A DNA stretch of 33,165 bases from an uncultured virus (IMG/VR IMGVR_UViG_3300030099_003764). Taxonomy: Duplodnaviria > Heunggongvirae > Uroviricota > Caudoviricetes. The translations under genes were made by a program, and so were the position numbers. The notes below the pieces were generated by a model, which was not told where the DNA came from, did not search any database, and saw nothing but the letters and a program-made list of their open reading frames with translations. The stretch lies in IMG/VR virus record IMGVR_UViG_3300030099_003764. One strand, written 5' to 3'. Of this stretch, positions 12-24,295 are shown in pieces (the first letter of the stretch is position 1; each line of letters starts with the position of its first letter).

Positions 12-338
12 ATGTCTTGGGAAGATATAATGAAAAAAGACTATGTAAATGTAGATGAAGAACTAGAAGATTTAGAAAATCAAGCAGAAGAGTATCAGCG
101 ATTAGCACTCGCTCTCGGTCAAATAGCCAAAATCGCAATACAAGGTCATACCTATGCTAACATGCCTGAAGACAAAAGAGAAGTATTTGATAAGGCGATA
201 GCGGGAATGGAAGAGATGGAAAAACAAGCGGAAAAAGCCAAAAAAGCATATAATGACGCAATAAAAAATATGGCTAAATTATTAGGTACTGAAAATACTG
301 CTAAAGATGTAAAGGACTTTATTCAGAATAATATGTGA
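12..338 (+). CDS. Hypothetical coiled-coil protein with N-terminal MSWEDIMK tag
   Basis: ORF with AGGTGG RBS at 2-7; helical E/K/A-rich sequence. Confidence 0.8.
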   Translation: MSWEDIMKKDYVNVDEELEDLENQAEEYQRLALALGQIAKIAIQGHTYANMPEDKREVFDKAIAGMEEMEKQAEKAKKAYNDAIKNMAKLLGTENTAKDVKDFIQNNM

Positions 339-347
339 GATGATGCT

Positions 348-716
348 ATGACATGGTTTGATGTAGTTAAGATTCTAACTCCAAGACAGTTTCTTGAGTC
401 TTTAGAGATAGATGGTATCATTAAAGGTAAAGCCGGTAAATACGGTACTAACATGGAATTAGTTAGTGATGATATTGTTATCAAGATTAGACAAGACAAG
501 TACGGGATGAACAGTGTTAATGTCAATGAAAAGAGGTTTGCATCCCATGACCTAAACAAGATATTAGTAGCGGTAAAGAAGGAATTGAAAGAAGATTCTT
601 ATACCGATGCTTTACTAAGAGAAGCAGGGGTAGTGGATTCCGGCAAGGCCGGTATCATTAATGTGAGATATTCACCAAAAAAGGAGGATGAAGAAGATGG
701 CGAAAAAGAAGACTAA
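348..716 (+). CDS. Hypothetical protein with N-terminal MTWFDVVK tag
   Basis: ORF in operon; acidic C-terminus. Confidence 0.75.
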   Translation: MTWFDVVKILTPRQFLESLEIDGIIKGKAGKYGTNMELVSDDIVIKIRQDKYGMNSVNVNEKRFASHDLNKILVAVKKELKEDSYTDALLREAGVVDSGKAGIINVRYSPKKEDEEDGEKED

Positions 717-1806
717 GAAGAGTCCTTCGGGGGATGGCTATGGTAATACCATAGAATCAGAACCTTTGACATTTAGAAAAGCATACTTAGAGTGGGAAAA
801 TAAGTGTAAGGGTATCAGTGCTAAAGAGATACAATCAGAAGGTAGAAAGGGAGTAAGAAGTGTTCCTCCTAATTTATTTGAACAGATTCAAGAGCATGTG
901 ACGGCGGCATTTAGACGACCCGAATCAAGCAATGATGGTACTAAAGGTGCCTATGTTTTGATAGATGATATAATCAAAGCACTCAAAGATGATAAGTTGT
1001 TTTTGGAAAATGAGAGAGATAATCTTGAAAAGTTTCAGAAGGATATGGGAGTATTCCTCAAGGCTAACAGTAAATTAAATCCAAGTAATATTGAGTTTAA
1101 TAGGCCGGAAACATACGATGTAGTGAACGGCAAAGTAGTCAATGAAAGTGAAGACACAATCACCATTTACGGGCATTATGTTGATAAGTATTTTATAGAT
1201 AAATACCCTAAGAAAAAGTATAAGGTAATGCCAAGTTGGTCGAGTAGAAATAAAAATGAATCTAATCCACCATACAAGCAAGCATTGTTTGGTGGTGGCG
1301 ATTTACTCGGAGAAGGTGAAGGTCTTTTAGATGTAATAGAATTAGCACTAAAAGAGTTAGATGAGAAGGTTATCGAACTTTATACTATTGGAATTAAAAG
1401 AGCATCTGCTTTAGCAAGACTACCTTCGGTTCAATCATGGGTTAGACGCAATATCAAAAAGAAACAATTCTATCCTTCTAATAGTGGTAAAATCAATTTG
1501 CGCCAAATAGGTGAAGCACTACTAACTCAAGAGTTTCCTATCAAGAACGATATAGAACAAAGAATGGTAACTATAGCGGCTACAAATAAAGACATTGAGT
1601 TTGCACAAAAAATAGAGAGATTCAAAGTCGGGCGAATAAGCAATCAAGTTATGGCTACTCTGATTAGAGAAGTTATTTCAAGAGGCAAAGAAGAAAACAT
1701 TAGAGTTAAAAATGGCTACTATCTACAATTAAGGGGATTATCTGACCCTCCTTCTGAAACATGGAAAGAAATCAAAAAGAGTTGGATGCAACATTTATGG
1801 GCGTGA
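697..1806 (+). CDS. Hypothetical protein (C-terminal WKEIKKSW motif)
   Basis: Long ORF 688..1806; GGAGG at 683-687 favours ATG 697. Confidence 0.8.
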   Translation: MAKKKTKKSPSGDGYGNTIESEPLTFRKAYLEWENKCKGISAKEIQSEGRKGVRSVPPNLFEQIQEHVTAAFRRPESSNDGTKGAYVLIDDIIKALKDDKLFLENERDNLEKFQKDMGVFLKANSKLNPSNIEFNRPETYDVVNGKVVNESEDTITIYGHYVDKYFIDKYPKKKYKVMPSWSSRNKNESNPPYKQALFGGGDLLGEGEGLLDVIELALKELDEKVIELYTIGIKRASALARLPSVQSWVRRNIKKKQFYPSNSGKINLRQIGEALLTQEFPIKNDIEQRMVTIAATNKDIEFAQKIERFKVGRISNQVMATLIREVISRGKEENIRVKNGYYLQLRGLSDPPSETWKEIKKSWMQHLWA

Positions 1807-2067
1807 TTAAATGAGTTGGGAAGATATAATGAAAGATAATAAAATGTTAAAGTCACTTATAGATAAGTATGAGAAAAAGATGGATTTAGAGAAACCAATA
1901 CAGTATCTTAATGAAAACATATTTGAAGCCTATCAACAGTTTCAAGGGGATTTACCAGACGAAATCCTAAATGAAAAGGAATTGATTGGCTTATTTAGAG
2001 AAATAGTTTTAGAAGAAATTGATTCAATGTTAAGGTGATTAAATGAATTGGGAAGATATAATTAAAG
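1803..2067 (+). repeat. Direct repeat pair (1803-1835 and 2035-2067) spanning stop/RBS/tag
   Basis: gtgattaaatgagttgggaagatataatgaaag vs gtgattaaatgaattgggaagatataattaaag; 31/33 identical by hand. Confidence 0.85.
1811..2038 (+). CDS. Small hypothetical protein with MSWEDIMK tag
   Basis: ORF preceded by GTGATTAA; flanked by 33-nt direct repeats. Confidence 0.75.
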   Translation: MSWEDIMKDNKMLKSLIDKYEKKMDLEKPIQYLNENIFEAYQQFQGDLPDEILNEKELIGLFREIVLEEIDSMLR

Positions 2068-2411
2068 TTGGGTATATCCCATCAGATGCAAGAAAAAGAA
2101 GCGCACCGACAATAAATTGGTTAGATGCTTTTGATAAGTTTGGATTTGATGACGGGGCAGAAAATACAGGGCAGACAGAAGAGATTGCTGAGTTTTTACG
2201 AAAGAATGGATATTTAGCACACTTAGTCGAAGCCGGAGGACATAATACTTACATTTCAGCAGTAATAGAAAAGGGAGAAGGAATCGCTTATCCTAAAGAT
2301 GGAATAAAGTTTCGCCGTAGTCCTGATAGAGAATATTTCAAATCCGAATTATTGAAGTTATTAGATGGTAAATACGGTAAATCAATGAAGTCAGAACACA
2401 TTAAGAGTTGA
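2043..2411 (+). CDS. Hypothetical protein with MNWEDIIK tag
   Basis: AGGTGAT RBS at 2033-2039. Confidence 0.8.
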   Translation: MNWEDIIKVGYIPSDARKRSAPTINWLDAFDKFGFDDGAENTGQTEEIAEFLRKNGYLAHLVEAGGHNTYISAVIEKGEGIAYPKDGIKFRRSPDREYFKSELLKLLDGKYGKSMKSEHIKS

Positions 2412-2416
2412 TTTAA

Positions 2417-3073
2417 ATGATAACCCGCAAACGATGTTCTGTCTGTCAGCATGAAGATAGAGAAGAAATTGAAGCCGCATTAGAAGGCGGATTCATTTCT
2501 TGTGATGATATGGATAAAAGACATGATTGGAGAAGTGGTTCATCAGCCCAACACATGAGAAATCATATGGGAGATTATACAAACAGTAGTAATCCCAAAT
2601 GTAAATTATGCACAGACCCAATGAGAAAGCATTACGAAGAAGCACTTTCAAACGGGAATATAACTGCTGATGGCGTTTCACAGGCTCTCGGTGTCACGAA
2701 AGAGCAGGTGCAAAGGCACATGAAGCACCACTTGGCACCGTTGGTTCAGCAATCTGCCGCCAGCATTATAGCGAAAAAGGAAGTAAATGAAATTGAATTG
2801 CTAAGTGCTAACATACAAAGGCTTGATACGAAGTTAGATGAGTTATTCAGAAATACAGAATTAGAGCCAAGAGAGATAGATAGCCTAACTAAACTTGCAA
2901 AAGAAGTTAGAGAGAGTTTGAAGTATCTTATGGAGTTTAAGGGTAAATTGGTTCACAAGCGGCAAGATACAATTATTGTTGCACAGATGCAAATTGTTCA
3001 AGAAGTGCTTGCACAGAACAATCCTGAGATTTGGTTAGATATTAAGAAGAAAATGCAGGAGAAACTACAATGA
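2417..3073 (+). CDS. Tandem Zn-finger/HTH plus coiled-coil protein; candidate terminase small subunit
   Basis: Two repeats CxxC-(~35 aa)-HMxxH (CSVC..HMRNH; CKLC..HMKHH) followed by helical oligomerisation-like region; lies upstream of terL. TerS call is inference. Confidence 0.5.
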   Translation: MITRKRCSVCQHEDREEIEAALEGGFISCDDMDKRHDWRSGSSAQHMRNHMGDYTNSSNPKCKLCTDPMRKHYEEALSNGNITADGVSQALGVTKEQVQRHMKHHLAPLVQQSAASIIAKKEVNEIELLSANIQRLDTKLDELFRNTELEPREIDSLTKLAKEVRESLKYLMEFKGKLVHKRQDTIIVAQMQIVQEVLAQNNPEIWLDIKKKMQEKLQ

Positions 3074-3323
3074 GTTGGGAAGACATAATTAAGAACGAAG
3101 AAAAAGTATCTAATTTTATTAAACTAGCAAAAAATAATATGGACAAGTTTAATGAAGATGAGAAAATAATGGTTAACTATTTAATTAATTTTTTAGAAGA
3201 TAAATATGACAGAAACATATTTGAAGCACTAAGGTTTGAATTAAAGAAAAAAGACCTAATTCATGCTAAATCAAGATTTTTAATGAAGGAGAAATTACAA
3301 TGAGTTGGAAAGATATTATTAAA
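3053..3323 (+). repeat. Direct repeat pair (3053-3093 and 3283-3323) spanning gene end and tag
   Basis: atgcaggagaaactacaatgagttgggaagacataattaag vs atgaaggagaaattacaatgagttggaaagatattattaaa; 35/41 identical by hand. Confidence 0.85.
3070..3303 (+). CDS. Small hypothetical protein with MSWEDIIK tag
   Basis: ATGA overlaps at both ends; flanked by 41-nt direct repeats. Confidence 0.75.
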   Translation: MSWEDIIKNEEKVSNFIKLAKNNMDKFNEDEKIMVNYLINFLEDKYDRNIFEALRFELKKKDLIHAKSRFLMKEKLQ

Positions 3324-3572
3324 CAAGTTAATAAAGATAAAATAAAAGAGATTAGAGAGTTTCTTTTTGCTTATGGGCACCCCGATGATGATGAAGAAGC
3401 ATTAGAAATGGGTAAAAAAATAGACGAGGCTATGGAAGATATGCCAAGAAGAAAAGGCTTTCATAGACTTGCTCACAAACCACCACGCTCACATAAAGAT
3501 AAGAAAACAAGGGATAAATATTGGCAAATAATTCATGAATATTTAGATGCGTTAGAAGGGGAATTACAATAG
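3300..3572 (+). CDS. Small hypothetical protein with MSWKDIIK tag
   Basis: ATGA overlap; GGAG RBS. Confidence 0.75.
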   Translation: MSWKDIIKQVNKDKIKEIREFLFAYGHPDDDEEALEMGKKIDEAMEDMPRRKGFHRLAHKPPRSHKDKKTRDKYWQIIHEYLDALEGELQ

Positions 3573-3580
3573 GTGATTCT

Positions 3581-5635
3581 ATGGTAAGGCAGTGGCCGGA
3601 TAATTATATGGGTTTATTTGCCATATTGTCTGATGATAATGCTACTGATGAAATGCTTAAAATAAAATCCGGTAAAAAGAATACAGGGATGAGTTTTGTT
3701 AATAGTTTTGTAAATGAAATGAACGAGTTTGTCCGTGTTGATGATATTTCTGATGATTTTGACACTGAAGAATATATGAAGGAAAAAGGTGCCGGAACAT
3801 TACTAAGTACATTTAGTGGATTAAGAGAAAAAATCAAATTTTTAGACAAAATAGAAGATAATATCGTAAAACTTGTTCAAGAAGTTAAAGGGAGAAGGGG
3901 CCGAAGTAAGTTAGATTTATTAATTTCTAATATTTTAGAAGAAAAAGACGATGTTAAGGCCAATCTTGTTAAATTACAGAAAATTATTCCTAATCTAAGT
4001 AAAGATAATATGAAACAATTAAGAAAAAGACACTTAAATGAGCGAAATAAGCAAAAATTAATCGAAATCTACTCAAAAAACCAAGATAAACTAACCGAAG
4101 ATGACTTCAATGACGAAGAAAAAGTCAATATAGACCAATCTTTACTAAAAATAACTGCATCAGCAAGTGTTTTTGACAATAATGAGTTAAAAGCCATTAA
4201 ACAAGGCGCAAAAAAGATGGATTTTAAGGTAAAATTAGAGAAAAATAGAATAATTATGCTAAAAATACTTCCATCAAGAACCGCTAAGAGTAAAGAAGTG
4301 AGAGATGCGCTTTTAACGGCAACAGTTGGTGATTTATTTTCAAAGGAAAGGGGTGGAAAAGCCGCAGATATTGAAATAATCATAGACCACTCAGATATTA
4401 GGAATCTTTTGATAGAAAAAGACAAGGTTCTTAGAGATATTGCCTCAACAGAATCTATTTTAGAAGAACAGGGAAGTACATTAGTGGCGGAAGAAACTAT
4501 TGATGAAGATAGACTTGAAGATTATATCAAATTAATTAAGCGTGGACTTTTGAAGCCCACTGCTACAAAGGCATTGACTTCTTTTAACTTAAATGGAACT
4601 TCATTATATGAAAAGGTCTTTGATGGTAATTCCGCAAAAAAGAACCATAATATGTCACCATACTTGGCTAAAGTATTAACAGGTTCAAGTGACAATCCTT
4701 TTGATGAGGCTATGGATAATAATGCTAAGGAAAGCATACTGCCGGAAAGAGTATTTAGAGAATATGTATCACAAAGAGATGGTTGGAGAGAATCATACAA
4801 GGGTCAAAGAACACCCGACCAATTAGGAAAAGATACTGCGGCAGGTAAAAACTACTTTGATGAATATGATAAATTAATTGAAGGCGGTACTGCGGGAGTA
4901 ATTAGCAAACATCTTGCTGACTTTTTGGTAACGAGAAATACCATAACAAAAGAAGAAAGGGATGGCTTCGATATAATAAACAAGGACTCTAAACCAAGCC
5001 ATCAATTGTTAGTAATCAAAAATATTGGAAAAAGAAGAGTAACTGAAATATTCGGGGGTAGCGAAAGCCCTACATTTCAGAGAAGATACAGAAGATGGTT
5101 AGAAAGTAATAATCTAACTGATAATCGTCAAGGCAAATTAGACAGGTTTAGAAAAGATGTAAATGTTGAAGGAATTGATTTCAGCAAGGAGTCAAAAGCG
5201 GTGGCGGCTATCTATTCTATTCTGATGAAAGAACCTTTGTTAGCCTTCTTTGGTTCAAGAACCGAACTCAAAAATATGTTTAGAGCATTTAATATAAACA
5301 ATGGACTGAAGGTATATTATCACATTATTAGCCTTATGACTAATGTAGATTTGAAGTCCGAAGTGCAAAAGATAGACTCAATGGTAGATAGAAAGAAGGG
5401 GGAGAAACCTTCATTAGATAACAATTCCTCCCTTCTTGCATCGGTTAAGGCTCTTGCTGACAAACTCAATACAGGTTTGGTCGAGTTTAAGAGGTCTTTT
5501 ACAGAAGCGTTAAAGCAAAGATTGAAGGATATAGAAGAAAAACCTAAGCAATATCTTGTTATACATAAGAATGATGATATTAAAAAATTATTAGTTGCTT
5601 CTAATTTAATGAATGAAAAGGTGGTTGAAGAATGA
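3581..5635 (+). CDS. Large K/E/D-rich hypothetical protein (684 aa)
   Basis: Long ORF, AGGTGAT RBS at 3571-3577; no motif recognised. Confidence 0.85.
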   Translation: MVRQWPDNYMGLFAILSDDNATDEMLKIKSGKKNTGMSFVNSFVNEMNEFVRVDDISDDFDTEEYMKEKGAGTLLSTFSGLREKIKFLDKIEDNIVKLVQEVKGRRGRSKLDLLISNILEEKDDVKANLVKLQKIIPNLSKDNMKQLRKRHLNERNKQKLIEIYSKNQDKLTEDDFNDEEKVNIDQSLLKITASASVFDNNELKAIKQGAKKMDFKVKLEKNRIIMLKILPSRTAKSKEVRDALLTATVGDLFSKERGGKAADIEIIIDHSDIRNLLIEKDKVLRDIASTESILEEQGSTLVAEETIDEDRLEDYIKLIKRGLLKPTATKALTSFNLNGTSLYEKVFDGNSAKKNHNMSPYLAKVLTGSSDNPFDEAMDNNAKESILPERVFREYVSQRDGWRESYKGQRTPDQLGKDTAAGKNYFDEYDKLIEGGTAGVISKHLADFLVTRNTITKEERDGFDIINKDSKPSHQLLVIKNIGKRRVTEIFGGSESPTFQRRYRRWLESNNLTDNRQGKLDRFRKDVNVEGIDFSKESKAVAAIYSILMKEPLLAFFGSRTELKNMFRAFNINNGLKVYYHIISLMTNVDLKSEVQKIDSMVDRKKGEKPSLDNNSSLLASVKALADKLNTGLVEFKRSFTEALKQRLKDIEEKPKQYLVIHKNDDIKKLLVASNLMNEKVVEE

Positions 5636-8202
5636 TTTTAGACAATCATGTAAAAGATTCTAAAAAGGTCTTAGAAGAACTTGAAACCGAGTTTAAGAAA
5701 AAGAATGTCGGTAATAATAAAGCCGAAAGAAGAAGAATCATTTATAATGAAATGGATGATTTTATTTTCGACCTTGTTGAAAATAATACTGAGGATTTAG
5801 ATGATGCCACCGTTGATGACATTATGGAAGAATTGAAAGAATATCTTATGGGTTTGAAAACTACTAAAGTTGCTGGTGAGATTGAAGAAAAAAGCGCCGA
5901 GTTTTTGCAAAAACTACCACTAAGCAATATATTATATGAAGGAACGCCCATTGCTGGACAAAGGAATATTCTTCTAACAAAGGGATTTAATGCAAATGCT
6001 ATTTCTGTTAAAGAAGGCAGAACAGTTAAAATAGATAGATTAGAAACCAAAATCAAAGAACAAAAAAGAATAGTAGATTCACTTAAAGAAGCAGAAAAAT
6101 TAATAGAAAATCCAATAAAAACACAATTCATAAAAACTCATGTATTTACCAACCTAAGAAATATGACAAAAAGAATCCGTAGAGTAATGAAAGAAGGCAC
6201 AAGGGAATATAAGGTGTCTAAGTTTGAATTACACTTAGATAAGATATTTGGTACTGAAACAGGGAAGTTCAAAGACCTAAAAGAAAGAGAGGCTACTTAT
6301 CAATATTGGTCTGAAATTAAAGATGAAGAAGATAAGATGATTAAAAATCTAAAAGAACTCTTAACTACACTAAAAGAAGTAAAAACTGAAATAGAAGGCA
6401 GAGAAGAAGAAAATAAAGCCATTAGCGAGTTTGTTAATTTTGTTGAAAAAAATATTGACAAACTAACTTATGTTGATATGTTTGAGCCGGTGTTCGATTC
6501 TTTAGAAGATATAGAAGTAAGGGCAGTAAAAATATTGAAGGACTTTGCCGAAGTCTACGGCATTAATATGAGTATGACAGGTCAAGAAGAAGGACTACAA
6601 ACTCAATATGAAGATGATGAGCCTTCTGACGATGAGGATGAGGAAAAGCCCTCAAGTGCTGGTGAAGGAGATACAATCAATCCTCAAGCCAAAGAATCAA
6701 TAGCAGAACTTGAACAAAATCTATCAGATGAACAGGAGTTTGACCCTCTTGGACTGTTGGTTTTGAAAGAAGATTTAGGTGCCTTTGCCGCAATATATGG
6801 TGAAGTAGAAGAATTGAAATCACTTGTCAAAGAGAAAAAAGAACGATTTGCTTTAGACCAAGACGATGAAGAAGCCGTCTTTGAAACCTTTGTTGATAAG
6901 ATTGAAGCAGTTGAACAGTATGTAGATGAATCAGTGTTCAGAACTAAAACATTCCCACTACCTATCTTTGCTGCAAACCTTCCGGCTCTTAGAATACACT
7001 ACAAAAAAGTAGGTTCGGAAATAAATGTAAGAACACAAAACATAGACAGGTTCTTGGAATTATTTGTAAATCTAATAGAAAAGGACAAGACTCTATTTCC
7101 GCAAGATGTAGGATTACAAATGGCTGGCGCAGGTTCGGGGCCGTTAAGTGAACAGTTGAAATTACCTGCGGGTAAAAGCGGAAAGAAGCCAAGTCCTAAA
7201 AGACAGTTTAGATACCTAAATACTGTTATTGGTGCAAAAGGTAGTCTAAGGGAGAACTTCTCATACACTACAAAAATTGATAATAAGATAGCAGAACAAA
7301 TTGATGCTCTTATCAAACCAATGGTTGAGATTTACTTAGGCCCACAATTTACTATTCACTCAGCAGGTATGGATTTACCATTTACAGACAATGCCGCTAT
7401 GAGAATTATTTCATCATACAAGGACTTGGATGCTAAGTACATTAATTACCAAGCACTGAATAAGAAGTTTGCTGAATATGGAGAAGCGTTGATTAAAGAT
7501 AGTGAGGCAAAAAGATTGTTGGAGTTCACTAATCTTTTGACGAAGGGAGATACTATACAGAATCTAAATACATTAGAGGAAAAGGGAGCAAAGTTTGTTA
7601 AGGGAGTGTATAGAATATTCAAAGATATAGATGAGGAAACCAAAAGCAAGACGGCTAACAATGCACTTAAAGATAGAATCCATAGAGAAGTCGCTTCACT
7701 GATTGGTTCAATAAAAATACTTTCTGATGATAAAGAGGATAGGCCGTTCCTTGTCGGGGCTACCTACAAGAAAAACATTAAGCCACTTGAAGAATACTCA
7801 AACTTAGGTGTGGATAGAGTTGGTGAAATCACTGCTATTAGGTCTTTATCACAATTGATAGCAAGCAGTAAAGGAGAGGCTATCATAGACAGTGACATCG
7901 GAGAAAAGTTGGTAGCCGACTTTAGAACCTTAGCAAAGAGCGAGATTAATGATAAACTATTGGCGGTGCATGATACTATTAGGTTACTAAAGAAGCAGCC
8001 TATTTACCATTCATTCAAGAGGCTGGATGATATAGACCATTTGGATTCTATGATTTCCAAGATGGAAAAGGACTACAACTTGGATATTTCAGCCAGCGAA
8101 ATAACCGGCATTGTCAATACAATCAATTCATTTGATAGTATTAGCAAAGCATACGGAATTAGCACAGAGCATGTGTATGTGATTAAGGCTAACTTTAGGT
8201 GA
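5632..8202 (+). CDS. Large acidic helical hypothetical protein (856 aa)
   Basis: Long ORF with ATGA overlap; acidic linker EDDEPSDDEDEE. Confidence 0.85.
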   Translation: MILDNHVKDSKKVLEELETEFKKKNVGNNKAERRRIIYNEMDDFIFDLVENNTEDLDDATVDDIMEELKEYLMGLKTTKVAGEIEEKSAEFLQKLPLSNILYEGTPIAGQRNILLTKGFNANAISVKEGRTVKIDRLETKIKEQKRIVDSLKEAEKLIENPIKTQFIKTHVFTNLRNMTKRIRRVMKEGTREYKVSKFELHLDKIFGTETGKFKDLKEREATYQYWSEIKDEEDKMIKNLKELLTTLKEVKTEIEGREEENKAISEFVNFVEKNIDKLTYVDMFEPVFDSLEDIEVRAVKILKDFAEVYGINMSMTGQEEGLQTQYEDDEPSDDEDEEKPSSAGEGDTINPQAKESIAELEQNLSDEQEFDPLGLLVLKEDLGAFAAIYGEVEELKSLVKEKKERFALDQDDEEAVFETFVDKIEAVEQYVDESVFRTKTFPLPIFAANLPALRIHYKKVGSEINVRTQNIDRFLELFVNLIEKDKTLFPQDVGLQMAGAGSGPLSEQLKLPAGKSGKKPSPKRQFRYLNTVIGAKGSLRENFSYTTKIDNKIAEQIDALIKPMVEIYLGPQFTIHSAGMDLPFTDNAAMRIISSYKDLDAKYINYQALNKKFAEYGEALIKDSEAKRLLEFTNLLTKGDTIQNLNTLEEKGAKFVKGVYRIFKDIDEETKSKTANNALKDRIHREVASLIGSIKILSDDKEDRPFLVGATYKKNIKPLEEYSNLGVDRVGEITAIRSLSQLIASSKGEAIIDSDIGEKLVADFRTLAKSEINDKLLAVHDTIRLLKKQPIYHSFKRLDDIDHLDSMISKMEKDYNLDISASEITGIVNTINSFDSISKAYGISTEHVYVIKANFR

Positions 8203-8206
8203 TAAT

Positions 8207-8743: not shown

Positions 8744-8744
8744 C

Positions 8745-9197: not shown

Positions 9198-9198
9198 A

Positions 9199-10629: not shown

Positions 10630-10638
10630 GGTGATTAA

Positions 10639-13243: not shown

Positions 13244-13641
13244 GTTGGGAAATAATTTTGAAACAATTGGCTTGTCCAAGAGCAACCCAAGATTTAATGC
13301 TTAATACTAAAAATAGAGATGCGGCAGTTAAAAATCCTAGCATTAGATATGGGCCGCTTAATCTTGAAGATGAGGAATATTGGGAAAAATATGCTAAAAG
13401 ATGGAATACTACTGCTGATGTAGCAAAAGAATCTAATTGTAGTAATTGTATTGCATTCGACATATCTCCGAGAATGGATGAGTGTATGCCTTTAACTACT
13501 GATGAAGATGGGCGTTTAGGATATTGTTGGATGCACCATTTCAAGTGTCATTCTGCTAGAACTTGTTATACTTGGGCTAAAGGTGGCCCAATTGATGATG
13601 ATAAAACTTCTAAAGAAAATCAAATGAGGGGAGAAAAGTGA
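13240..13641 (+). CDS. Cys-rich metal-binding protein with MSWEIILK tag
   Basis: CSNC..FD..GYC..C..C..W pattern (HiPIP-like Cys spacing). Confidence 0.7.
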   Translation: MSWEIILKQLACPRATQDLMLNTKNRDAAVKNPSIRYGPLNLEDEEYWEKYAKRWNTTADVAKESNCSNCIAFDISPRMDECMPLTTDEDGRLGYCWMHHFKCHSARTCYTWAKGGPIDDDKTSKENQMRGEK

Positions 13642-13925
13642 TTGAATGGCAAGAAATCCTAAAGAAAAAAAAGCCATTCAAGGGTTATAATAAAAAGATT
13701 CATGCAAGAACAGGTGGACTAAGTGCTAAAGGTCGTGCTAAGTTTAAGCGTGAACAAGGCTCTAATCTAAAAGCCCCTGTTACTACTAAACCAAGTAAAT
13801 TGAAGCGTGGTAGTAAAGCCGCTAAAAGACGCAAATCTTTCTGTGCAAGGTCAAGAGGATTTAAGCGTGATGATGGGACATACAGTGAAAAAGCAAAAGC
13901 CGCTAGAAGAAGGTGGAATTGTTAA
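13638..13925 (+). CDS. Small very basic protein with MIEWQEILK tag
   Basis: GGLSAKGR..GSNLKAPV..RRKSFCAR..RRWNC, recalled as a common marine phage family (DUF6321-like). Confidence 0.7.
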   Translation: MIEWQEILKKKKPFKGYNKKIHARTGGLSAKGRAKFKREQGSNLKAPVTTKPSKLKRGSKAAKRRKSFCARSRGFKRDDGTYSEKAKAARRRWNC

Positions 13926-14392
13926 TGTGGAGAGATTTGCTAAAGGCTGATTTTGTTGTTAAAACAGATTACCCCGAAGCAGATTTTTGGCTACAAAAAA
14001 GAGGCTCTAAACAGAATGTTGGAAAGCCCATGCGAAAGTTTAGTGAGATACAAGGCCCATATAACATAGGAATTAAGGTTCCCAAAGGAATGAATAAGGA
14101 ATATGTTTATTCACAATTAGCCTCTTTATACAGAAAAGGATATTGGGAAAGACATTCTTATGGTTCCCTTCCTTTACAACACATTAGAATAGATGATGTT
14201 AAGAAGATTTTAGAATCGTTTGAAGATAAAGCAGATTACAAAGATGTTACATCAGATAAAATAGAAAAGATATATGATAAGTGGTTAAAAGATTCTAAAC
14301 TAATCAGTGAATTACTAATGTCAAGTAACTCTTTAATTAGAGAAGGTCGAGAAATTAAAAGGTTCTTACAAAAAATGGAGGGGATGAGATGA
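13925..14392 (+). CDS. Protein with HsdS/TRD-like small domain and MWRDLLK tag
   Basis: ATG 13925 overlaps upstream TAA; PEADFWLQKRGS..VGKP..IGIKV..EYVY..GSLPLQHIRIDDVKKI resembles a type I RM specificity-domain fragment. Confidence 0.55.
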   Translation: MWRDLLKADFVVKTDYPEADFWLQKRGSKQNVGKPMRKFSEIQGPYNIGIKVPKGMNKEYVYSQLASLYRKGYWERHSYGSLPLQHIRIDDVKKILESFEDKADYKDVTSDKIEKIYDKWLKDSKLISELLMSSNSLIREGREIKRFLQKMEGMR

Positions 14393-14523
14393 AGTATTGT
14401 GGGATATGCTATACTACGCCCGACCCCAAGCCCTTTGGGTTTTGCGAAAAGTGCTGGATAAAATACGGTAGGCCAAAGCCTATGAAAGCATTCATAAGAG
14501 AAGGCAATCGTCATAAATACTAG
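14389..14523 (+). CDS. 44-aa zinc-finger microprotein (absent from the ORF track)
   Basis: Manual translation MKYCGICYTTPDPKPFGFCEKCWIKYGRPKPMKAFIREGNRHKY*; GGAGGGG RBS at 14377-14383; ATGA overlap. Confidence 0.7.
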   Translation: MKYCGICYTTPDPKPFGFCEKCWIKYGRPKPMKAFIREGNRHKY

Positions 14524-14533
14524 GGGGTTCTAT

Positions 14534-16171
14534 ATGGTTGAAAAAAAGCGTAGATTTTCTTTTACTAATTTATTTAGGCGTTCCACTCCTAAACCTGCTG
14601 ATAGGCAGATATACAACATGGGTATTCAAGAAAGACAGAATAACTACATGATGACAGCACCTATTATTTATTCTATGGTTCAACAATCCGTTATCGTTAG
14701 AACCTGTATTACTCAATTGAAACAGGAAGTATATAGAAGAGGATATACTTGGGAAAAGGCCTTTGAGTCTATTTGTAATAATTGTGGAAAAAAGCACCAA
14801 AGACCTGTTGCCGCATGTTCAAGATGTGGTTCAGAAGATTTGAAATTACCTGATGTAAAACAATTAGAATACGCTGAGAAGTTTTTGGAGGGGTATGTCA
14901 ATCCATCAGAACAGTTATTCATTGATGTGCTGAAGGAATTAGAAGATGATTTGAATACTATGGATGATGCGTACATTGTTCTTGTTAAGGAATACTTCAT
15001 TGATGGTAACGGGCAAATAAGAATGCACCGTATCAAAGAGATATTCAGAGGCGACCCTGTAACTATGTTCATCTATGCAGACGAAGATGGTGTAAAGGGA
15101 ACCAAAGGATTTACTTGTATTAATCATAGAGATGTTCTACATACAGAACCACACCATAATTGCGAACATTGTGGTGGAGAATTGTACCCTGTTCATTATG
15201 TCAATAGAGCAAATGGTGACGACCAATACTTCTTAGAGGGAGAAGTATTACATTTTAGTAAATATAGCCCAAGTAGGCTCTATGGTTTCTCTCCTGTTAT
15301 CACACTATACAATCACATTATGACTCTTATTGCTATGGAGAATTATGTCAATTCAGCATATACTAAGAGTAGAATGCCAAGAGGATTGTTAGCAGTACAA
15401 ACACGCAACATGGACTCAATGAGAGCATTTTGGCGTGGTGTAAAAGAGAAAATGGAATCAGACCCACACTTTATTCCTGTTATGGGTATTGAAGCAGAGG
15501 GCGGTAAAGGTGCCGTAGAGTGGATTAAGTTTATGGATAGTTTAAAGGAAATGGATTACATTTCTGTAAAGGATGATTTGAGAGATAGGATTTCAGCATT
15601 CTATGGTGTGAGTAAAGTATTCATGGCTGACAATACTACAAGTGGCGGTTTGAATAATGAAGGTATGCAAATCTTAGTTACTAATCGTGCAGTACAAATG
15701 GCTCAGAATGTGTATAATAATTATGTATTCCCATACTTAGTTAAGCAGTTTGGAATTACAGATTGGGTTCTCAAACTACCGCCATCTGAAGAAGAAGATG
15801 AAATCGCTGAGTTGAGAAAAAGAGAGATAGAAGTCAATATTGCCGCTTCAATTAAAAACTTAGGCTTTGAAGTAGAAATGGATGAAGATGGTAACTTTAC
15901 CTTTGAAAAACCAGAACCGGTTGAACAAGAACAACCTGTTGAAGAAGGTGAAGTAGAGAATGACCCATTAGCAGGTTCTAATTTAGACCAAAGGGATTTA
16001 GATGAACAAGCAAGACAATTTGCTCAAGGTGGAGGAAAACCACAGGAAAACCCACCAGCCACAAGGAATAAAGCCCGAAACGAAGTAGGGCCGGATAAGC
16101 GTATGACAGGATTACCAGCAGAAGCAGGTAATCAAAATGTAGATTCAAGAACCGAAAGGAGAGTTGGTTGA
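14534..16171 (+). CDS. Portal protein with Zn-ribbon insertions
   Basis: HK97-like portal features (EVLHFSKYSPSRLYGFSPV, MPRGLL, DMDY/EMDY..RDRISAFYGV); CNNC/CSRC and CINH/CEHC inserts; position between terL and protease. Confidence 0.88.
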   Translation: MVEKKRRFSFTNLFRRSTPKPADRQIYNMGIQERQNNYMMTAPIIYSMVQQSVIVRTCITQLKQEVYRRGYTWEKAFESICNNCGKKHQRPVAACSRCGSEDLKLPDVKQLEYAEKFLEGYVNPSEQLFIDVLKELEDDLNTMDDAYIVLVKEYFIDGNGQIRMHRIKEIFRGDPVTMFIYADEDGVKGTKGFTCINHRDVLHTEPHHNCEHCGGELYPVHYVNRANGDDQYFLEGEVLHFSKYSPSRLYGFSPVITLYNHIMTLIAMENYVNSAYTKSRMPRGLLAVQTRNMDSMRAFWRGVKEKMESDPHFIPVMGIEAEGGKGAVEWIKFMDSLKEMDYISVKDDLRDRISAFYGVSKVFMADNTTSGGLNNEGMQILVTNRAVQMAQNVYNNYVFPYLVKQFGITDWVLKLPPSEEEDEIAELRKREIEVNIAASIKNLGFEVEMDEDGNFTFEKPEPVEQEQPVEEGEVENDPLAGSNLDQRDLDEQARQFAQGGGKPQENPPATRNKARNEVGPDKRMTGLPAEAGNQNVDSRTERRVG

Positions 16172-16172
16172 T

Positions 16173-16367
16173 ATGACTTGGGATTATTACGATATTAAGA
16201 AAAAACCTGATAATATTACAGGTGTAGAAATAAGAAGAAGAATGAATGCTGAAAGTTATAAAAAATTAGTGGCATGGTTGCAGAAAAATTACAATAAAAT
16301 ATTTGAAGAATATATGGATGAACAGTTAGAAAACAGGAAAAAAGTTACCGAAACCTACAAGGAGTGA
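16173..16367 (+). CDS. Small hypothetical protein with variant MTWDYYDIK tag
   Basis: ATG 16173 immediately after portal stop. Confidence 0.65.
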   Translation: MTWDYYDIKKKPDNITGVEIRRRMNAESYKKLVAWLQKNYNKIFEEYMDEQLENRKKVTETYKE

Positions 16368-16371
16368 TTAA

Positions 16372-16599: not shown

Positions 16600-16609
16600 A
16601 GGTGATATA

Positions 16610-19600
16610 ATGTCCTCTTGGAAGTCTATCATAGCAGGTCGTGAAAACGATGTGTATTTTTTACTAAAGGAATTAGTAGAAAATAGAGAAATAGCGAAGG
16701 CTATTGGTGATTTCAAAGGACTATCCGGCCCAAAGAAAGAAGGAGAAGATGAAGAGGATGAGCGTAGTCTTGAAGAAAGACTCAAAGACTTTTCTAAAGA
16801 TAGAGCCGAGCAAAGAACAAAGTTTGAACAACAATTACAATCCTTAGAACGAGGAATTAAAAACAATCAACCTGATTTACAAGATATTGTTAATGAAATC
16901 TTCTTTAGTGATATGATAGTCGGTACGCCAACTTCGGAAACTAAAGGCATTAATTACTTGATAGAACCTAAAACAATAGAAACTCAAACAATCAATACTT
17001 CTGGAGTAAGTTTTCAAGAAAACAAATTCAAGAAAAGAATTAAAGAAACATTAAAAGATTTGTATAGAAGTTCTGATGAAAGAAAAGATGAAGAGTTTTC
17101 AATTACTGATAAACAATTTGATTTGTTTGCAGAAGAAAACTTTGAAAACATTAAACATCATATTAGTAGAGGATTAGCCATATCTTTAGGACTAAGAGCA
17201 AGCCGTAAAGATTTGGAATTAAGTGAAAAAGAGGCAGAAAAAGAAGTAGAGTCGAGAAAAAAATATCTTGAAAAGACTAAAACAGAAAAAAAGGAAAAAT
17301 CTGCTAAACTTGAAAAACAAATAAAAGCCTTAGAAAAACTCGCAAAAGAAAGAGGAAAATTGAAAGCAGATAAAATAACTTCTGTTGTACCAATCATAAA
17401 TGCTACTTATGAAAATGAAGTAGATAATGAAAAAATAGCAGACATATTAGATTTACCTAAAAAACCAATCTTTGATAGTGCTGAAGAAGCAAATGATTTT
17501 ATTGTGTCTTTTAACAAAGTCCAAAGAAAAAGAAATCAATTACAGGCACGACTTAAAAAAATAAAAGACAAAAAAATGTCTAAGGGTAAGTATGAAGAAA
17601 AGGATGAGTTTGCCCAAAGAAAAAGAAAAAGGGATAGAAGCATATCCGGTATGGAAAAAGCGATAACAAGACTAAATAAAACACTTAAAGAAGAAGGAGT
17701 TAAAGTTACTCAAATAAAACAATTTAGAGATTTATTGAGTATGAACTTAGATAGTAAAATAAAGTCTTTGAAAGGAAAATTAGATGGATTAAGCCAAGAA
17801 GTAGAACTTGCAGAAAGAAGAGTAGAATTAGCAGTTTTACGGGCCGCTTCAGTTATTGATGAAGATGACCCTTTGTATAATAAAAAGCGGCAAGAAATGT
17901 TCAAAAACTTAGAAAGGTTAGGAAAAGACATAAAAGTAGATTTATCTAAAAAAGGGATAGAAGATAGAATTAAACAAGAGAATCTCAAAGCGTTTAATTC
18001 AGATAAAAAGAAAGCACTCGAAACTTTTGATAAAACAACAAAGGTCATAGAAGAAAGAATAAAGGCTTCATTTAAGCAAAAAGAAAAGGACAAACTGATA
18101 ACCGAGGGTAAAGAAGAAAGACCACAGGCAAAAGAAAGCGTTGTTTTCTCTGAAATATTTAGTGAAATAGAAGGAAAAACTGCTTTGAAAACTATTAAAG
18201 AATTACTTAATGAAGAAGGATTTAAGCAGTATCTTAGTATATTAGATAAAAAGATAGTAATAGAACCAAAGATTGAAGAAGAACTTGGAGAGAACTTCAA
18301 GGGCCGTTCTAAGTTGGTTACACCAAAAATAGGTGATTTTAAGAGAATGACTCGTAAAGAAAAGAATGACTTCGTTCTTGATAACATGCCTAAGTTTCAA
18401 GGGTATTATACAAGACTTATGGGGGCATTAAATGATTTACAGGCAAAGACACCTACTGAAGATAAAAAAATTACAAAAATCAAAAAATTGATGGAAAGTA
18501 TGCAAGGGAGATTTAAGCGTCTTTCAAGGACAGAAAGAAAGGAAAGGGCAAAAAAATCACCTATTAGATACGGTGCCGATAGAAGTGATGATAAACGGAC
18601 TATGAAAGAAAAATTAGCCGAAGAAGAAAAGCAAATATATCAATACTTCTTTGAAAATGCAAAAGGCATTAAGAATGAAAAACAATTACTAACAAGTGAA
18701 GTAAATAGACCTACAATAACATTTTGGAAGGATTTATCTTCAAACATGGATGCGTTTGCTAAAGCGACATCAAACTATCAAAACAAAGATGATTTCGTAA
18801 AAGCAATTCAATCTTTCATTGGTAAAAATAATCTGCATGTAATAGATATTCTTAATCTAATGGGGACTAAGAGAAATAATAAAATTAGAAGTGATATACT
18901 CACTTCCATACAAAGCAACAAACTTTATCAAGATTTGACAAGGGCTAAGAAAGAAGCACCTACTCGATACAAAAAAGAAACGCTTGAGCAAAAAATTGCA
19001 AGACAAAAGAGAGAGGGAGTACCCGAAAGCAAAATTAAACCAAAAGACCCATTCAAAGAAAGAAGGAAAGCCCTTGCAGAAAAAAGAAAGGAAAAAGAAT
19101 CTATGCTGAAAAGTGTTCCCTCAGAGTCAGAAGTTTTGCAAAGAGCCGCTAAGGAAAAATATCCAGACAAAGACATAAAAGATTTAACAACCGACCAAAT
19201 TAGAGAATTAATAGCAGGTCTAAGTGAAATAGATAAGAAAAAATACTTTGGAAGAAGAAGAAAGGGAGATAGTGAAGAAGGAAGATATTCTCCTGTCGAT
19301 TTTAGAACTGAAGAACAATCTAAAGAATCAAAAGAAAAAAGAATGTTAGATTGGGGCAAGTTAAAATTAGAAGATGCAGTTAAATTAGCAAAGAAGATTA
19401 GGGGTGCTGAAGATTCTGATGATTTCGATACAAGTAAAAAAACACTACATACCCTCTTTACAAAAGAAAAAAGTAAAGAGGATAAGAATAGATTCTTTGC
19501 CTTCGTTGATGTAAATAGAAAGGCCGAAGTAGTTGTTAGAGGATTTTCCTACAAAAAAGGGGATAAAGGCTACAATGAAATAGAAAAGGCCGCAGACAGT

Positions 19601-20536
19601 ATTCTCAAAAACTTAGAGAAAGAAGTTACCTATGAAGGACAGGAAATGACTATACTTGAAGTAATTAATAGAATATCAAGAGGCACTTTCAAATACAAAG
19701 CCGGTAGAGTAGATTCTGACACGAAGGATGATGTGAGAGAACAATTTGGAAAACTTGTTGAAGAAGCAATTAAGAATGTTAAGGTAAAGAAATCCGAACA
19801 ATTCAGAATACCTAAGTTTTTCAAGTCACGAATGAAAGAAGATACTAAAGTTTTCAGAAATGATTTAATGAATATATTTTCTGGTTCAAAGGTAAAAACA
19901 GATGTATCTGGTGTTGGCTCTTTATCTAAGTTTTTTGAGAAAGAAGTAGTAAAAGTAAGTAAAGGAGTCTATGAAATCAATACTAAAATTATTCTTAGTG
20001 TAGACGAAAGAATAAAAGAAATAGGCGACATTTACGAACAAATGAATGCCACTGACAAAATTGAGCGTAAAGAAAAAGATATTGATTCATTAGTAGAAGA
20101 AAAAGAATTAGAACTTTTAATTTACGGAGATAAACAAAAAAGAATAGAAAGATTGGTTCGTGCGCTCAATAGACTTAGAGAAGAACTCACAGTCGGAAAA
20201 GACACTAAAATAAGACTTTTGGGAGAAGCCGCAGAAAAAATAAATGAAAAGATTGATTCAATGGTTGAATTAGAAGAGGGTAGTCCTAAATATGAAGCCA
20301 CAAAGTTTGTCGTCAATTTTATGCAAGATTCTGCTGATAGGATTCAAGAAGAAATTAAAGAAATACAAAGCAAAGAAGGCGAAGAACAAAAATTACTTGA
20401 CAAAATAGAGAAAGTGAGAAAGGAACAAGAAGAAGAACTTGCCTTATTTAGAAGAATGGTAGAAGCAAAAAGAGAAGGCAGACTCAAACAGGGTAAAGGA
20501 AGAATTACAATAAAACCGAAGGAGGAAAAGGAATGA
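16610..20536 (+). CDS. Very large K/E/R-rich coiled-coil protein (1308 aa)
   Basis: Long ORF with AGGTGAT RBS; starts MSSWKSII. Confidence 0.85.
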   Translation: MSSWKSIIAGRENDVYFLLKELVENREIAKAIGDFKGLSGPKKEGEDEEDERSLEERLKDFSKDRAEQRTKFEQQLQSLERGIKNNQPDLQDIVNEIFFSDMIVGTPTSETKGINYLIEPKTIETQTINTSGVSFQENKFKKRIKETLKDLYRSSDERKDEEFSITDKQFDLFAEENFENIKHHISRGLAISLGLRASRKDLELSEKEAEKEVESRKKYLEKTKTEKKEKSAKLEKQIKALEKLAKERGKLKADKITSVVPIINATYENEVDNEKIADILDLPKKPIFDSAEEANDFIVSFNKVQRKRNQLQARLKKIKDKKMSKGKYEEKDEFAQRKRKRDRSISGMEKAITRLNKTLKEEGVKVTQIKQFRDLLSMNLDSKIKSLKGKLDGLSQEVELAERRVELAVLRAASVIDEDDPLYNKKRQEMFKNLERLGKDIKVDLSKKGIEDRIKQENLKAFNSDKKKALETFDKTTKVIEERIKASFKQKEKDKLITEGKEERPQAKESVVFSEIFSEIEGKTALKTIKELLNEEGFKQYLSILDKKIVIEPKIEEELGENFKGRSKLVTPKIGDFKRMTRKEKNDFVLDNMPKFQGYYTRLMGALNDLQAKTPTEDKKITKIKKLMESMQGRFKRLSRTERKERAKKSPIRYGADRSDDKRTMKEKLAEEEKQIYQYFFENAKGIKNEKQLLTSEVNRPTITFWKDLSSNMDAFAKATSNYQNKDDFVKAIQSFIGKNNLHVIDILNLMGTKRNNKIRSDILTSIQSNKLYQDLTRAKKEAPTRYKKETLEQKIARQKREGVPESKIKPKDPFKERRKALAEKRKEKESMLKSVPSESEVLQRAAKEKYPDKDIKDLTTDQIRELIAGLSEIDKKKYFGRRRKGDSEEGRYSPVDFRTEEQSKESKEKRMLDWGKLKLEDAVKLAKKIRGAEDSDDFDTSKKTLHTLFTKEKSKEDKNRFFAFVDVNRKAEVVVRGFSYKKGDKGYNEIEKAADSILKNLEKEVTYEGQEMTILEVINRISRGTFKYKAGRVDSDTKDDVREQFGKLVEEAIKNVKVKKSEQFRIPKFFKSRMKEDTKVFRNDLMNIFSGSKVKTDVSGVGSLSKFFEKEVVKVSKGVYEINTKIILSVDERIKEIGDIYEQMNATDKIERKEKDIDSLVEEKELELLIYGDKQKRIERLVRALNRLREELTVGKDTKIRLLGEAAEKINEKIDSMVELEEGSPKYEATKFVVNFMQDSADRIQEEIKEIQSKEGEEQKLLDKIEKVRKEQEEELALFRRMVEAKREGRLKQGKGRITIKPKEEKE

Positions 20537-20895
20537 CATGGGATTTTTATGATAGTGGCGAAGAGTTTATTCTAAAAGCCAAAAAAGAAGAACCAAAAAC
20601 TATTCTAAATAGTTTAGATAAAAAGCAAACAAAGAGGCTCAAAAAGACATTACAGGCGGCTGAACCAACGGAGTTTTTCGGCCAAGACTTTACAAAGATG
20701 GGTGACTTGATTGATGTTCTAAAAGACTTAGACTTGATGAAGTCCGACAAGAAACTTAGTAAGCGTATAAAAAGTATGGATGAACGCAATCTTGATATTG
20801 TAGCCACTGCTACGAAACTTCGTAAGGACTACGAAACCTTGTATCGACAACTTCGGGAAATGGTATATCCAAAGAAAAAGGGTGATTCGGAATGA
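20533..20895 (+). CDS. Hypothetical helical protein (MTWDFYD...FILKA)
   Basis: GGAGG RBS; ATGA overlap. Confidence 0.8.
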   Translation: MTWDFYDSGEEFILKAKKEEPKTILNSLDKKQTKRLKKTLQAAEPTEFFGQDFTKMGDLIDVLKDLDLMKSDKKLSKRIKSMDERNLDIVATATKLRKDYETLYRQLREMVYPKKKGDSE

Positions 20896-21116
20896 CTTGG
20901 TGGAACATAATCAAAGCAAAAGGAATAAGCAGTGGTGGTGGAAAAAAGTCACCACCGAGAAAGCCATCTAAGAAAAAAGGCGGTAGAACCATACAAGGCG
21001 GTACTTACGAAGCGGCTATGAATAATCTATCATTAGAATATTCTAAAGGTAAAATGACTGTTAATCAGTATGTTCGTGAAAAGAAAAAGATTCAAAAGAA
21101 GTTTGGGAAGGATTAA
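20892..21116 (+). CDS. Small basic protein with MTWWNIIK tag
   Basis: GGGTGAT RBS; ATGA overlap. Confidence 0.75.
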   Translation: MTWWNIIKAKGISSGGGKKSPPRKPSKKKGGRTIQGGTYEAAMNNLSLEYSKGKMTVNQYVREKKKIQKKFGKD

Positions 21117-24291: not shown

Positions 24292-24295
24292 CCGA

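Follow-up and report, generated by a model that had tools for sequence, protein, structure and literature searches.

A recurrent eight-residue terminal peptide on unrelated magrovirus proteins, a candidate label for loading cargo into the prohead

The DNA considered here, which we call the window, is a whole stretch of 33,165 nucleotides from an uncultured virus (IMGVR_UViG_3300030099_003764), with 44 gene calls and 10,918 encoded residues. Judged by its gene content, the window is from a magrovirus, an archaeal tailed virus with a genome of ~91-96 kb. In the magrovirus structural arm about a third of the genes around the head-assembly genes start with one eight-residue peptide, hereafter the tag. 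We see an even chance that the tag is a terminal address peptide that mimics the tail of the scaffold or prohead protease and loads cargo into the prohead, much as the capsid targeting sequence (CTS) of phage T4 does. The initial annotation of this DNA had proposed a capsid-targeting system of the T4 kind. What stands is a peptide-level, modular and lineage-wide tag on unrelated proteins; homology to the T4 system does not, the protease being of the S78/HK97 type and not of the gp21 type.

All 18 N-termini that the initial annotation listed, including the variants at 16173, 16610 and 20533, were found where it had placed them:

12..338, plus strand: tagged gene MSWEDIMK, 108 residues; no Pfam or PHROG match
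348..716, plus strand: tagged gene MTWFDVVK, 122 residues; tag in 3 of 3 family members
1811..2038, plus strand: tagged gene MSWEDIMK, 75 residues; N-terminus seen
2043..2411, plus strand: tagged gene MNWEDIIK, 122 residues; N-terminus seen
3070..3303, plus strand: tagged gene MSWEDIIK, 77 residues; N-terminus seen
3300..3572, plus strand: tagged gene MSWKDIIK, 90 residues; N-terminus seen
8745..9197, plus strand: tagged gene MSWWSIIK, 150 residues; tag in 4 of 4 family members
11991..12239, plus strand: tagged gene MTWEDIIHK, 82 residues; tag and Lys-rich linker, then a phrog_17747 domain
12232..12507, plus strand: tagged gene INWRDVLK (GTG start), 91 residues; tag, then a phrog_14910 domain
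12510..12851, plus strand: tagged gene MKWQTLLK, 113 residues; N-terminus seen
12848..13243, plus strand: tagged gene MNWQDILK, 131 residues; tag, indel-rich linker, conserved C-terminal domain
13240..13641, plus strand: tagged gene MSWEIILK, 133 residues; Cys-rich domain (profile search)
13638..13925, plus strand: tagged gene IEWQEILK (GTG start), 95 residues; DUF6321 (Pfam)
13925..14392, plus strand: tagged gene MWRDLLK, 155 residues; DUF6943 (Pfam), tag in 10 of 10 family members
16173..16367, plus strand: variant N-terminus MTWDYYDIK, 64 residues; single-member family
16610..20536, plus strand: 1308-residue protein with degenerate tag MSSWKSIIAGREND; hypervariable post-portal slot
20533..20895, plus strand: 120-residue core protein with split tag MTWDFYDSGEEFILK; some family members have a contiguous tag (MSWTSILK, MTWEYILK)
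20892..21116, plus strand: tagged gene MTWWNIIK, 74 residues, basic; N-terminus seen

The strict form of the motif (^M.{0,2}W..[ILVM][ILVM]K, which excludes MTWEDIIHK at 11991 by its extra His) heads 14 of the 44 window genes, where 0.008 would be expected from amino-acid composition. The comparison with shuffled N-termini that had been suggested gave at most one match in 2000 residue shuffles (mean 0.0095). Counted by start codon the strict motif occurs at 15 positions, and we take the additional one to be a second candidate start (TTG 13919) of gene 13925. Elsewhere in the encoded residues of the window the core motif occurs only twice, the three minus-strand frames hold no strict match, and Trp is among the first five residues of 19 of the 44 proteins. 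Two of the tagged genes, 12232 and 13638, have GTG starts. In the 120-residue core family the tag is split in most members (MTW-DYYEEGKEF-ILK) and contiguous in a few. As the initial annotation had stated, the large terminase subunit (TerL), the portal, the major capsid protein (MCP) and the genes after the MCP are untagged in the window, whose landmarks are:

9199..10629, plus strand: terminase large subunit; phrog_38, E 5e-58; untagged
10639..11994, plus strand: 451-residue protein with HNH-like region; phrog_5046, E 3.6e-5; untagged core gene, tag in 0 of 57 members
14534..16171, plus strand: portal protein; PF04860 and phrog_18178, E 1.6e-65; untagged
21754..24291, plus strand: 845-residue protein with ATP-dependent ligase domain (Pfam, NCBIfam)
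25584..26918, plus strand: MCP (Pfam, PHROG); untagged; conserved N-A-L-L-K at residues 24-28

The same pattern extends to relatives. Our survey covered 83 sources (the window, 80 related loci and two complete genomes) with a simple gene caller of our own; family counts are approximate because this caller dropped the tagged window genes 12..338, 11991..12239 and 12510..12851 and mis-set some starts. The tag heads 360 of 1521 plus-strand open reading frames (ORFs) and 0 of 372 on the minus strand. Its consensus, M-[STN]-W-[KEQ]-[DE]-I-L-K, ends at the Lys. In the two complete relatives, 16 of 77 and 13 of 72 plus-strand genes are tagged, and tagged genes number 0 of 67 and 0 of 71 on the minus strand, which is the replication arm; equal frequency in replication genes, which would have told against the proposal, was thus looked for and not found. 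Tagged genes occur along the structural arm from its first genes to shortly beyond the portal, with a single exception among the head-tail genes of the complete relative G004.

When 12 residues were trimmed from the N-terminus, the tagged ORFs fell into 99 of 485 BLAST families in ~1.5 Mb of relatives, and those tagged genes of the window that the caller had kept were in separate families, which bears out at the level of BLAST the statement that nothing is common after the Lys. Families are mostly all-or-none for the tag (45 of 51, 34 of 35 and 10 of 10 members), and the tagged proteins span 41 to 994 residues. TerL, the HNH-like protein, the portal, the ligase protein, the protease, the MCP and the 856-residue protein are never tagged in the relatives. 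Between the HNH and portal genes lie 0-10 genes, and 57 loci with portals 75-98% identical show 39 arrangements of this interval. Scanning with a degenerate DNA pattern yielded more carriers, with portal identity to the window from 54-57% up to 81%, and all ten of the records checked are either members of this broad lineage or do not include the portal region. The most distant clade shows no change in the tag consensus, and tagged proteins of 245-330 residues are also found in the tail module. The haloarchaeal virus HVTV-1, which has the same order of head genes, carries the tag on 0 of 20 head-module proteins, and its protease tail is unlike the tag.

The initial annotation had noted that codons differ between copies, and this proved to be so across the lineage. 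Over 295 distinct tag DNAs the conserved Leu is encoded by all six of its codons at one position (CTA 60, TTA 56, CTT 45, TTG 32, CTC 29, CTG 7), the Ile/Val position by ATT, ATA, ATC, GTT and GTA, and the Lys by both AAA and AAG. Conservation at the DNA level only, which would have undone the proposal, is contradicted by this variety. Given that six Leu codons are in use and that the Shine-Dalgarno sequences of tagged genes are ordinary, the signal is therefore in the protein, and selection acts on the tag peptide.

The tag also behaves as a module. In the family of the 12848 protein (26 sequences, mean column identity 46%), M1, W3, L7 and K8 are invariant. The Pfam and PHROG matches of the 11991, 12232, 13638 and 13925 proteins start past the tag: residues 21-81 of the 11991 protein correspond to positions 3-63 of the 63 in phrog_17747, and residues 10-90 of the 12232 protein to positions 2-74 of the 80 in phrog_14910. 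For DUF6321, the alignments to homologues from 24 phage records (cyanophages, pelagiphages and others) begin at residues 21-27 and never cover residues 1-20; those of S-TIP28 and HTVC031P are small stand-alone proteins with an untagged N-terminus, and thousands of longer proteins contain the domain too. With a profile of the 13240 family, 818 representative proteins were found at E<=1e-3, nearly all matched from profile positions 7-11, with an N-terminal tag on 4 of the 150 homologues listed. This domain occurs with a portal domain in 2 of the 32 large proteins examined, with a zeta-toxin-like kinase in one and with guanylate kinase in others. Because homologues of three tagged domains are found elsewhere without it, the tag is an add-on.

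Some further features of the carriers can be set beside these. The DUF6321 protein is 42-62% identical to those of marine cyanopodoviruses, pelagiphages and a Methylophilales phage (window 13638..13925; L237, L238), a pattern that resembles gene exchange between marine viruses of bacteria and those of archaea, and one untagged homologue is located between scaffold and capsid genes. The Cys-rich domain of the 13240 protein (CP-x-AT-QDL-x-LNTKNR ... YGPLN ...) has no Pfam family, is found in proteins of ~70 to 1742 residues, and co-occurs also with DUF5754, DUF5824, DUF5872 and YbjQ domains. A membrane helix was predicted in 0 of the 99 tagged families, and 3 of 82 tagged-family representatives passed the Pfam cut-off (DUF6321, DUF6943 and PAP2). 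The PAP2 carrier (L058:4569-5144) is a tagged 191-residue protein (MNWFSILK...) of the PAP2 phosphatase superfamily (E 1.2e-12) with no predicted membrane helix. The slot of 16610..20536, which holds a large protein and is located two or three genes past the portal, is filled by 18 BLAST families in 74 instances of 480-1487 residues, and the tag is present in 8 of the 74 by the strict and 24 of the 74 by the relaxed definition. Many unrelated proteins in this slot have an N-terminal signature of their own, approximately [FW]-x-K-A-[IV]-[IL]-x-G-R-E-[ND]-D, of which MSSWKSIIAGREND is the window form.

A tag-like motif stands also at the C-terminus of five conserved proteins, which were absent from the list in the initial annotation. 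A position-specific scoring matrix (PSSM) built solely from N-terminal tags was scanned over the window, and its best matches away from N-termini were one alternative start and the tails of 8207..8743, 688..1806 and the prohead protease. With a relaxed regular expression there are 10 N-terminal matches, 5 C-terminal ones (within 15 residues of the end) and 2 internal ones; the C-terminal zone, taken as the last 15-20 residues, makes up ~8% of window residues. The five proteins are:

688..1806, plus strand: 372-residue conserved basic protein, tail ...TWKEIKKSWMQHLWA; PSSM score 12.0
2417..3073, plus strand: 218-residue conserved protein with two Cys-x2-Cys units and a part that looks helical by eye, tail ...EIWLDIKKKMQEKLQ; tail motif in 3 of 3 family members
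8207..8743, plus strand: 178-residue member of a GNAT-acetyltransferase-like family, tail ...EREWKNILKRW; PSSM score 17.8
21119..21358, plus strand: 79-residue protein, tail ...SMEWSDIHKMVEKIGGQ; only the last 20 residues in common with the protease
24251..25573, plus strand: HK97-type (S78) prohead protease, tail ...SMDWSDIHKMVNNI; PF04586 E 3.1e-9 (above cut-off), phrog_23555 E 5e-16

The protease is likely to start at 24338 and has a long acidic, helical C-terminal extension; besides Peptidase_S78 it matches TIGR01543 (HK97 proheadase), and the T4-type family was not reported for it. The 35 distinct protease tails all conform to A-x-M-[DSE]-W-[SN]-[DE]-I-H-K-M-V, in which M, W, I and H do not vary. 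The 79-residue protein shares 14 of 20 residues with this tail (E 6e-8) and is otherwise unrelated. Both end in M-[DSE]-W-S-D-I-H-K-M-V, which fits the tag consensus M-x-W-x-D-I-x-K, and the protease tail of the distant clade retains M-x-W-x-[DE]-[VL]. At the level of sequence, the resemblance between tail and tag is real but partial.

Six of the 15 members of the 8207..8743 family match GNAT families in Pfam (best E 4e-9), the window member not being among them, and the family often ends in W-x-x-[VI]-L-[KR]. We considered this protein as a small terminase, which would have favoured a terminase or portal partner for the tag, and rejected that in favour of its relation to GNAT acetyltransferases. 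Among the GNAT-like members (window, L024, L042, L017, L046), short ones end in the tag motif and long ones carry the motif internally. The domain that follows the internal motif in long members is a separate tagged gene elsewhere (L079:4133-4441), which suggests gene fusion and fission at the tag in this family.

A comparable end may be present in the MCP, where N24, L27 and K28 are invariant in 36 sequences (N-x-L-L-K, residues 24-28) and where a clade with 47% MCP identity has S-N-I-M-K at this position. Set side by side, the hydrophobic-Lys ends are I-L-K in the tag, N-x-L-L-K in the MCP and D-I-H-K in the protease tail, a short motif compared as sequence only. The MCP motif could be a cut site like the I-L-K of the tag, a likeness too short to carry weight. 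Modelling of the MCP in complex with residues 1-35 of the 12848 family gave a score of 0.00 in both runs and its controls were also unfolded, so that it speaks neither for nor against binding. Mean AlphaFold2 confidence (predicted local distance difference test) was 50.5 for the MCP and 42.6 for the 13240 protein, both too poor for a fold search.

We suspect that M-[STN]-W-x-[DE]-[IV]-[LI]-K acts as a portable label on soluble accessory proteins, at their very N-terminus and in some cases at the C-terminus. It is short and would be amphipathic, with W, I and L on one face if helical, and it may imitate the conserved C-terminal tail of the virus's own prohead protease/scaffold. An imitation of that tail would therefore most likely dock at the same place, the abundant protease/scaffold-tail site within the procapsid as it assembles. 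Small proteins from a set that changes fast, plus a few large ones, would thus be co-assembled into the head and could enter the next host cell with the DNA, as the internal proteins of T4 do; the label may be clipped after its Lys by the HK97-type protease. Binding in the procapsid interior, cleavage and delivery are steps that we infer. A prohead protease/scaffold must enter the procapsid, and a tail-like peptide on many unrelated soluble proteins whose genes lie among the late head genes could most simply be read as the means of entry for these as well. Duda, Oh and Hendrix reportedly found in 2013 that the C-terminal part of the HK97 protease is what takes it into the prohead. The genes with a tag alternate with TerL, the portal and the post-portal slot for large proteins, and circumstantial support for a capsid destination comes from the protease tail, the MCP N-arm and the portal fusions of the 13240 domain. 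The lack of predicted membrane helices in the 99 tagged families also suits cargo.

We can also imagine a broader version, in which the magrovirus has an encapsulin-like programmable cargo system within an infectious capsid, with a label copied from the protease/scaffold tail and usable at either end that loads at least 100 interchangeable effector families and replaces portal/MuF fusions. This seems possible to us, and we lean slightly against it. Carriers in such a system would include enzyme-like proteins such as the GNAT acetyltransferase and the PAP2 phosphatase.

Several observations weigh against cargo loading by mimicry of the protease tail. The tail agrees with only 5 of the 8 positions of the tag consensus, and its invariant His at +4 is absent from all 360 tags, which have L, I, V or M there. 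Tail and tag do not co-vary, because in the clade with 54-55% portal identity the tail has no Lys (MSWNEVHELM) and the tags keep theirs. The putative cut motif of two hydrophobic residues and a Lys is short and common by chance. High charge was tried and rejected as a trait specific to tagged proteins, an isoelectric point above 9 being found in 63% of them and in 56% of other small plus-strand ORFs. Some of the C-terminal and internal copies may be by-products of fusion and fission, and those on 2417..3073 and 8207..8743 could point to a partner outside the capsid. Lastly, the tagged cluster 12-3572 opens the arm, a long way from the head genes, and could consist of early genes.

This last point leads to the strongest alternative, that the tag docks accessory proteins on a host hub such as a chaperone, a replication factor or a protease, and that the carriers are unpackaged effectors of intracellular takeover or anti-defence. 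Many tagged genes are indeed small, turn over fast and belong to no known family, the low rate of Pfam matches (3/82) being typical of host-takeover genes, and the cluster 12-3572 opens a transcription arm adjoining a divergent region seen in relatives. Against this, the minus-strand genes of the two complete genomes are devoid of tags (0/67 and 0/71), the tagged genes are interleaved with terminase and portal and, in the more distant clade, occur in the tail module as well, and the motif closes the prohead protease/scaffold, which works inside the procapsid. We regard a host hub as unlikely, if well worth keeping in mind.

Slightly more doubtful is the idea that the tag binds another viral assembly component (the portal, the terminase or the protease itself) for assembly or regulated proteolysis. 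Tagged genes do flank the portal and terminase genes, and the C-terminal copy on 2417..3073 accompanies Cys-x2-Cys units that, in our own reading and with no family match, might be DNA-binding and small-terminase-like. The hydrophobic-hydrophobic-Lys end resembles the site in the MCP N-arm, and the tag could be mainly a recognition site for the protease. The portal has twelve subunits, however, for which the 15-20 tagged proteins of each genome would have to compete, as inferred from that copy number, and the 8207..8743 family is GNAT-like and not a small terminase.

It is very improbable that what is conserved is a feature of the nucleic acid, either a translation-initiation enhancer or a recombination linker for cassette swaps, with the peptide as a by-product. 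The position of the tag does coincide exactly with gene starts, the edges of BLASTN homology blocks between relatives are often no more than 30 nt from a tagged start, and the five left-hand tags of the window are alike as DNA too. However, the use of all six codons at the conserved Leu, the ordinary Shine-Dalgarno sequences, the copies at C-termini and the lack of the tag on the MCP and other core genes all argue for the peptide, and homology blocks end equally often at untagged gene starts. We found no specific sign of a linker, breakpoints clustering at untagged and tagged starts alike. We give equally little credence to a descent of the tagged genes from one ancestor as paralogues recognisable only at the N-terminus, which tandem duplication in local clusters of small tagged genes would allow but which sits badly with lengths of 41 to 994 residues, with the unrelated domains carried (DUF6321, DUF6943 and PAP2 above the Pfam cut-off, and GNAT) and with the presence of the same domains, untagged, in bacteriophages and large multidomain proteins.

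The assignment of the window draws on its structural genes and on relatives. Its portal is ~30% identical to the portals of the haloarchaeal tailed viruses HVTV-1 and HCTV-5 and has 230 relatives in IMG/VR. Four relatives are rated 100% complete at 90.9-95.9 kb, among them G004 (90.9 kb), the one with terminal repeats. Every gene of the window is on the plus strand, and in two complete relatives the structural genes lie on one arm and the replication block on the other. Pfam matches among the 27 proteins of at least 140 residues scanned from the replication (minus) arm of G004 include a clamp loader, a second ligase, a UvrD helicase, nucleases, ribonucleotide reductase, the chaperonin Cpn60 and ThiF, and DNA polymerase B is split over two genes flanking an HNH gene. 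Magroviruses, tailed viruses of Poseidoniales (marine group II archaea), are described as combining a halovirus-like structural block with a large archaeal-type replication block and a chaperonin, with a second ATP-dependent ligase within the structural block and, in group B, a split DNA polymerase B (PMC5434244). Of the traits given there, the window and G004 together match the portal, the structural-block ligase, the split polymerase, the clamp loader and Cpn60. For 30 window proteins NCBIfam contributed nothing beyond the ligase and the protease, and a near-identity DNA search of a phage collection with the window gave no match.

Among the other genes of the window, the ligase protein (21754..24291) sits between portal and protease, with its ligase domain at residues 258-443 between large unassigned N- and C-terminal parts, and is conserved in all relatives (43-44% identity in the distant clade). 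Two large conserved proteins without a family match, 3581..5635 (684 residues) and 5632..8202 (856 residues), lie between the first tagged cluster and the GNAT-like gene. At the position of the former, G004 has a tagged protein of 602 residues (MNWQFVLK), and clustering did not join the pair. Searches of solved-structure sequences with these two proteins and 16610..20536 gave no meaningful match, nor did an ESM Atlas search with 5632..8202 and 16610..20536 give a usable one. Directly before the portal is a Cys-rich ORF of 44 residues (MKYCGICY...CEKCW, 14389..14523), with 36 related ORFs whose position varies within the HNH-to-portal interval. Most window genes are preceded by a GGTGAT-type Shine-Dalgarno sequence, and over the whole window the coding strand is purine-rich (GC skew ~+0.2, AT skew ~+0.2).

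Magroviruses count among the most abundant viruses in the surface ocean. Their hosts are uncultured, and only a minority of their small genes has a known function. Should the tag mark virion cargo, the injected proteins would be recognizable by a simple sequence rule; they are presumably first-strike tools against archaeal defences, and the injected set would be one that turns over fast between close relatives. Capsid-targeting peptides would then extend from T4 and P1 to archaeal viruses, with a mechanistic link to scaffold tails and encapsulin cargo peptides, and the broader version above would be the first system of its kind in an archaeal virus, with more virion-delivered proteins than any repertoire known. 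Since the tag has only eight residues and is placed at either terminus, a fusion protein would put it to a direct test, and it could be used to load HK97-fold shells. In the literature searched on magroviruses, capsid targeting sequences and internal proteins of archaeal viruses, supplements aside, we found no mention of the tag. The words 'N-terminal' and 'motif' are absent from PMC5434244 and PMC10160649, and PMC11706807 has two unrelated uses of 'motif'.

From the perspective of known packaging systems, the closest parallel is T4. The T4 CTS is a short N-terminal peptide and the sole common part of diverse, fast-evolving internal proteins (IPI-III, Alt); it targets them to the scaffolding core, the prohead protease cuts it off, and the proteins, of which Alt is an enzyme, are ejected with the DNA (PMC3012670, PMC7411985). 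T-even phages have polymorphic loci for internal proteins (PMC3012670). The magrovirus tag is likewise a short N-terminal peptide on unrelated proteins (14 of 44 window genes; 99 families), its carriers lie in polymorphic loci (39 arrangements among 57 loci), and as with Alt they include an enzyme-like member, that of the GNAT family. The differences are that the magrovirus protease is S78/HK97-type and not gp21-type, that the tag is also found at C-termini, that the putative host is an archaeon, and that there are ~15-20 carriers in each magrovirus genome and 99 families in ~1.5 Mb, compared with four named carriers in T4. To our knowledge, the two peptides have no sequence relation.

In phage P1, an N-terminal signal of DarB, of which the first 30 residues suffice, directs this very large anti-restriction protein or a reporter into the capsid (PMC9024508). 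Large magrovirus proteins of the post-portal slot similarly carry the tag or a degenerate form (8 of 74 strict, 24 of 74 relaxed). That source (PMC9024508) describes the P1 signal for a single protein, whereas the magrovirus motif is common to many families. The tail of the HK97-family protease/scaffold offers another likeness, in that the S78 protease of magroviruses has a strongly conserved C-terminal tail in common with a second small protein. In magroviruses, unlike HK97, the peptide has apparently been copied onto the N-termini of dozens of unrelated proteins. We know of no case in HK97 of a tail peptide copied onto unrelated proteins.

Encapsulin cargo peptides, as characterized in PMC8346489, are short, usually C-terminal and sometimes N-terminal, dock cargo on the inner face of an HK97-fold shell and can be transplanted to foreign proteins. 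However, encapsulins are cellular compartments without portal, DNA or tail, whereas the magrovirus locus encodes terminase, portal and MCP; each encapsulin system typically loads only a few cargo proteins, and the encapsulin consensus SDGSLGIGSLKRS (PMC8346489) does not resemble the tag. Fusions of portal/MuF or polyvalent proteins were put forward by Iyer et al. in 2017 as a mark of virion-delivered effectors, whose domains are carried in the virion through a covalent bond to a head component (PMC5512222). The 13240 domain occurs in such proteins, in distant homologues only and twice with a portal domain, and DUF6321 occurs in longer proteins; the tagged proteins of the window, by contrast, stand alone, and a non-covalent label would replace the covalent link. 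By sequence or protease type the magrovirus tag belongs to none of the T4, P1 and encapsulin systems, and by analogy it would work as they do.

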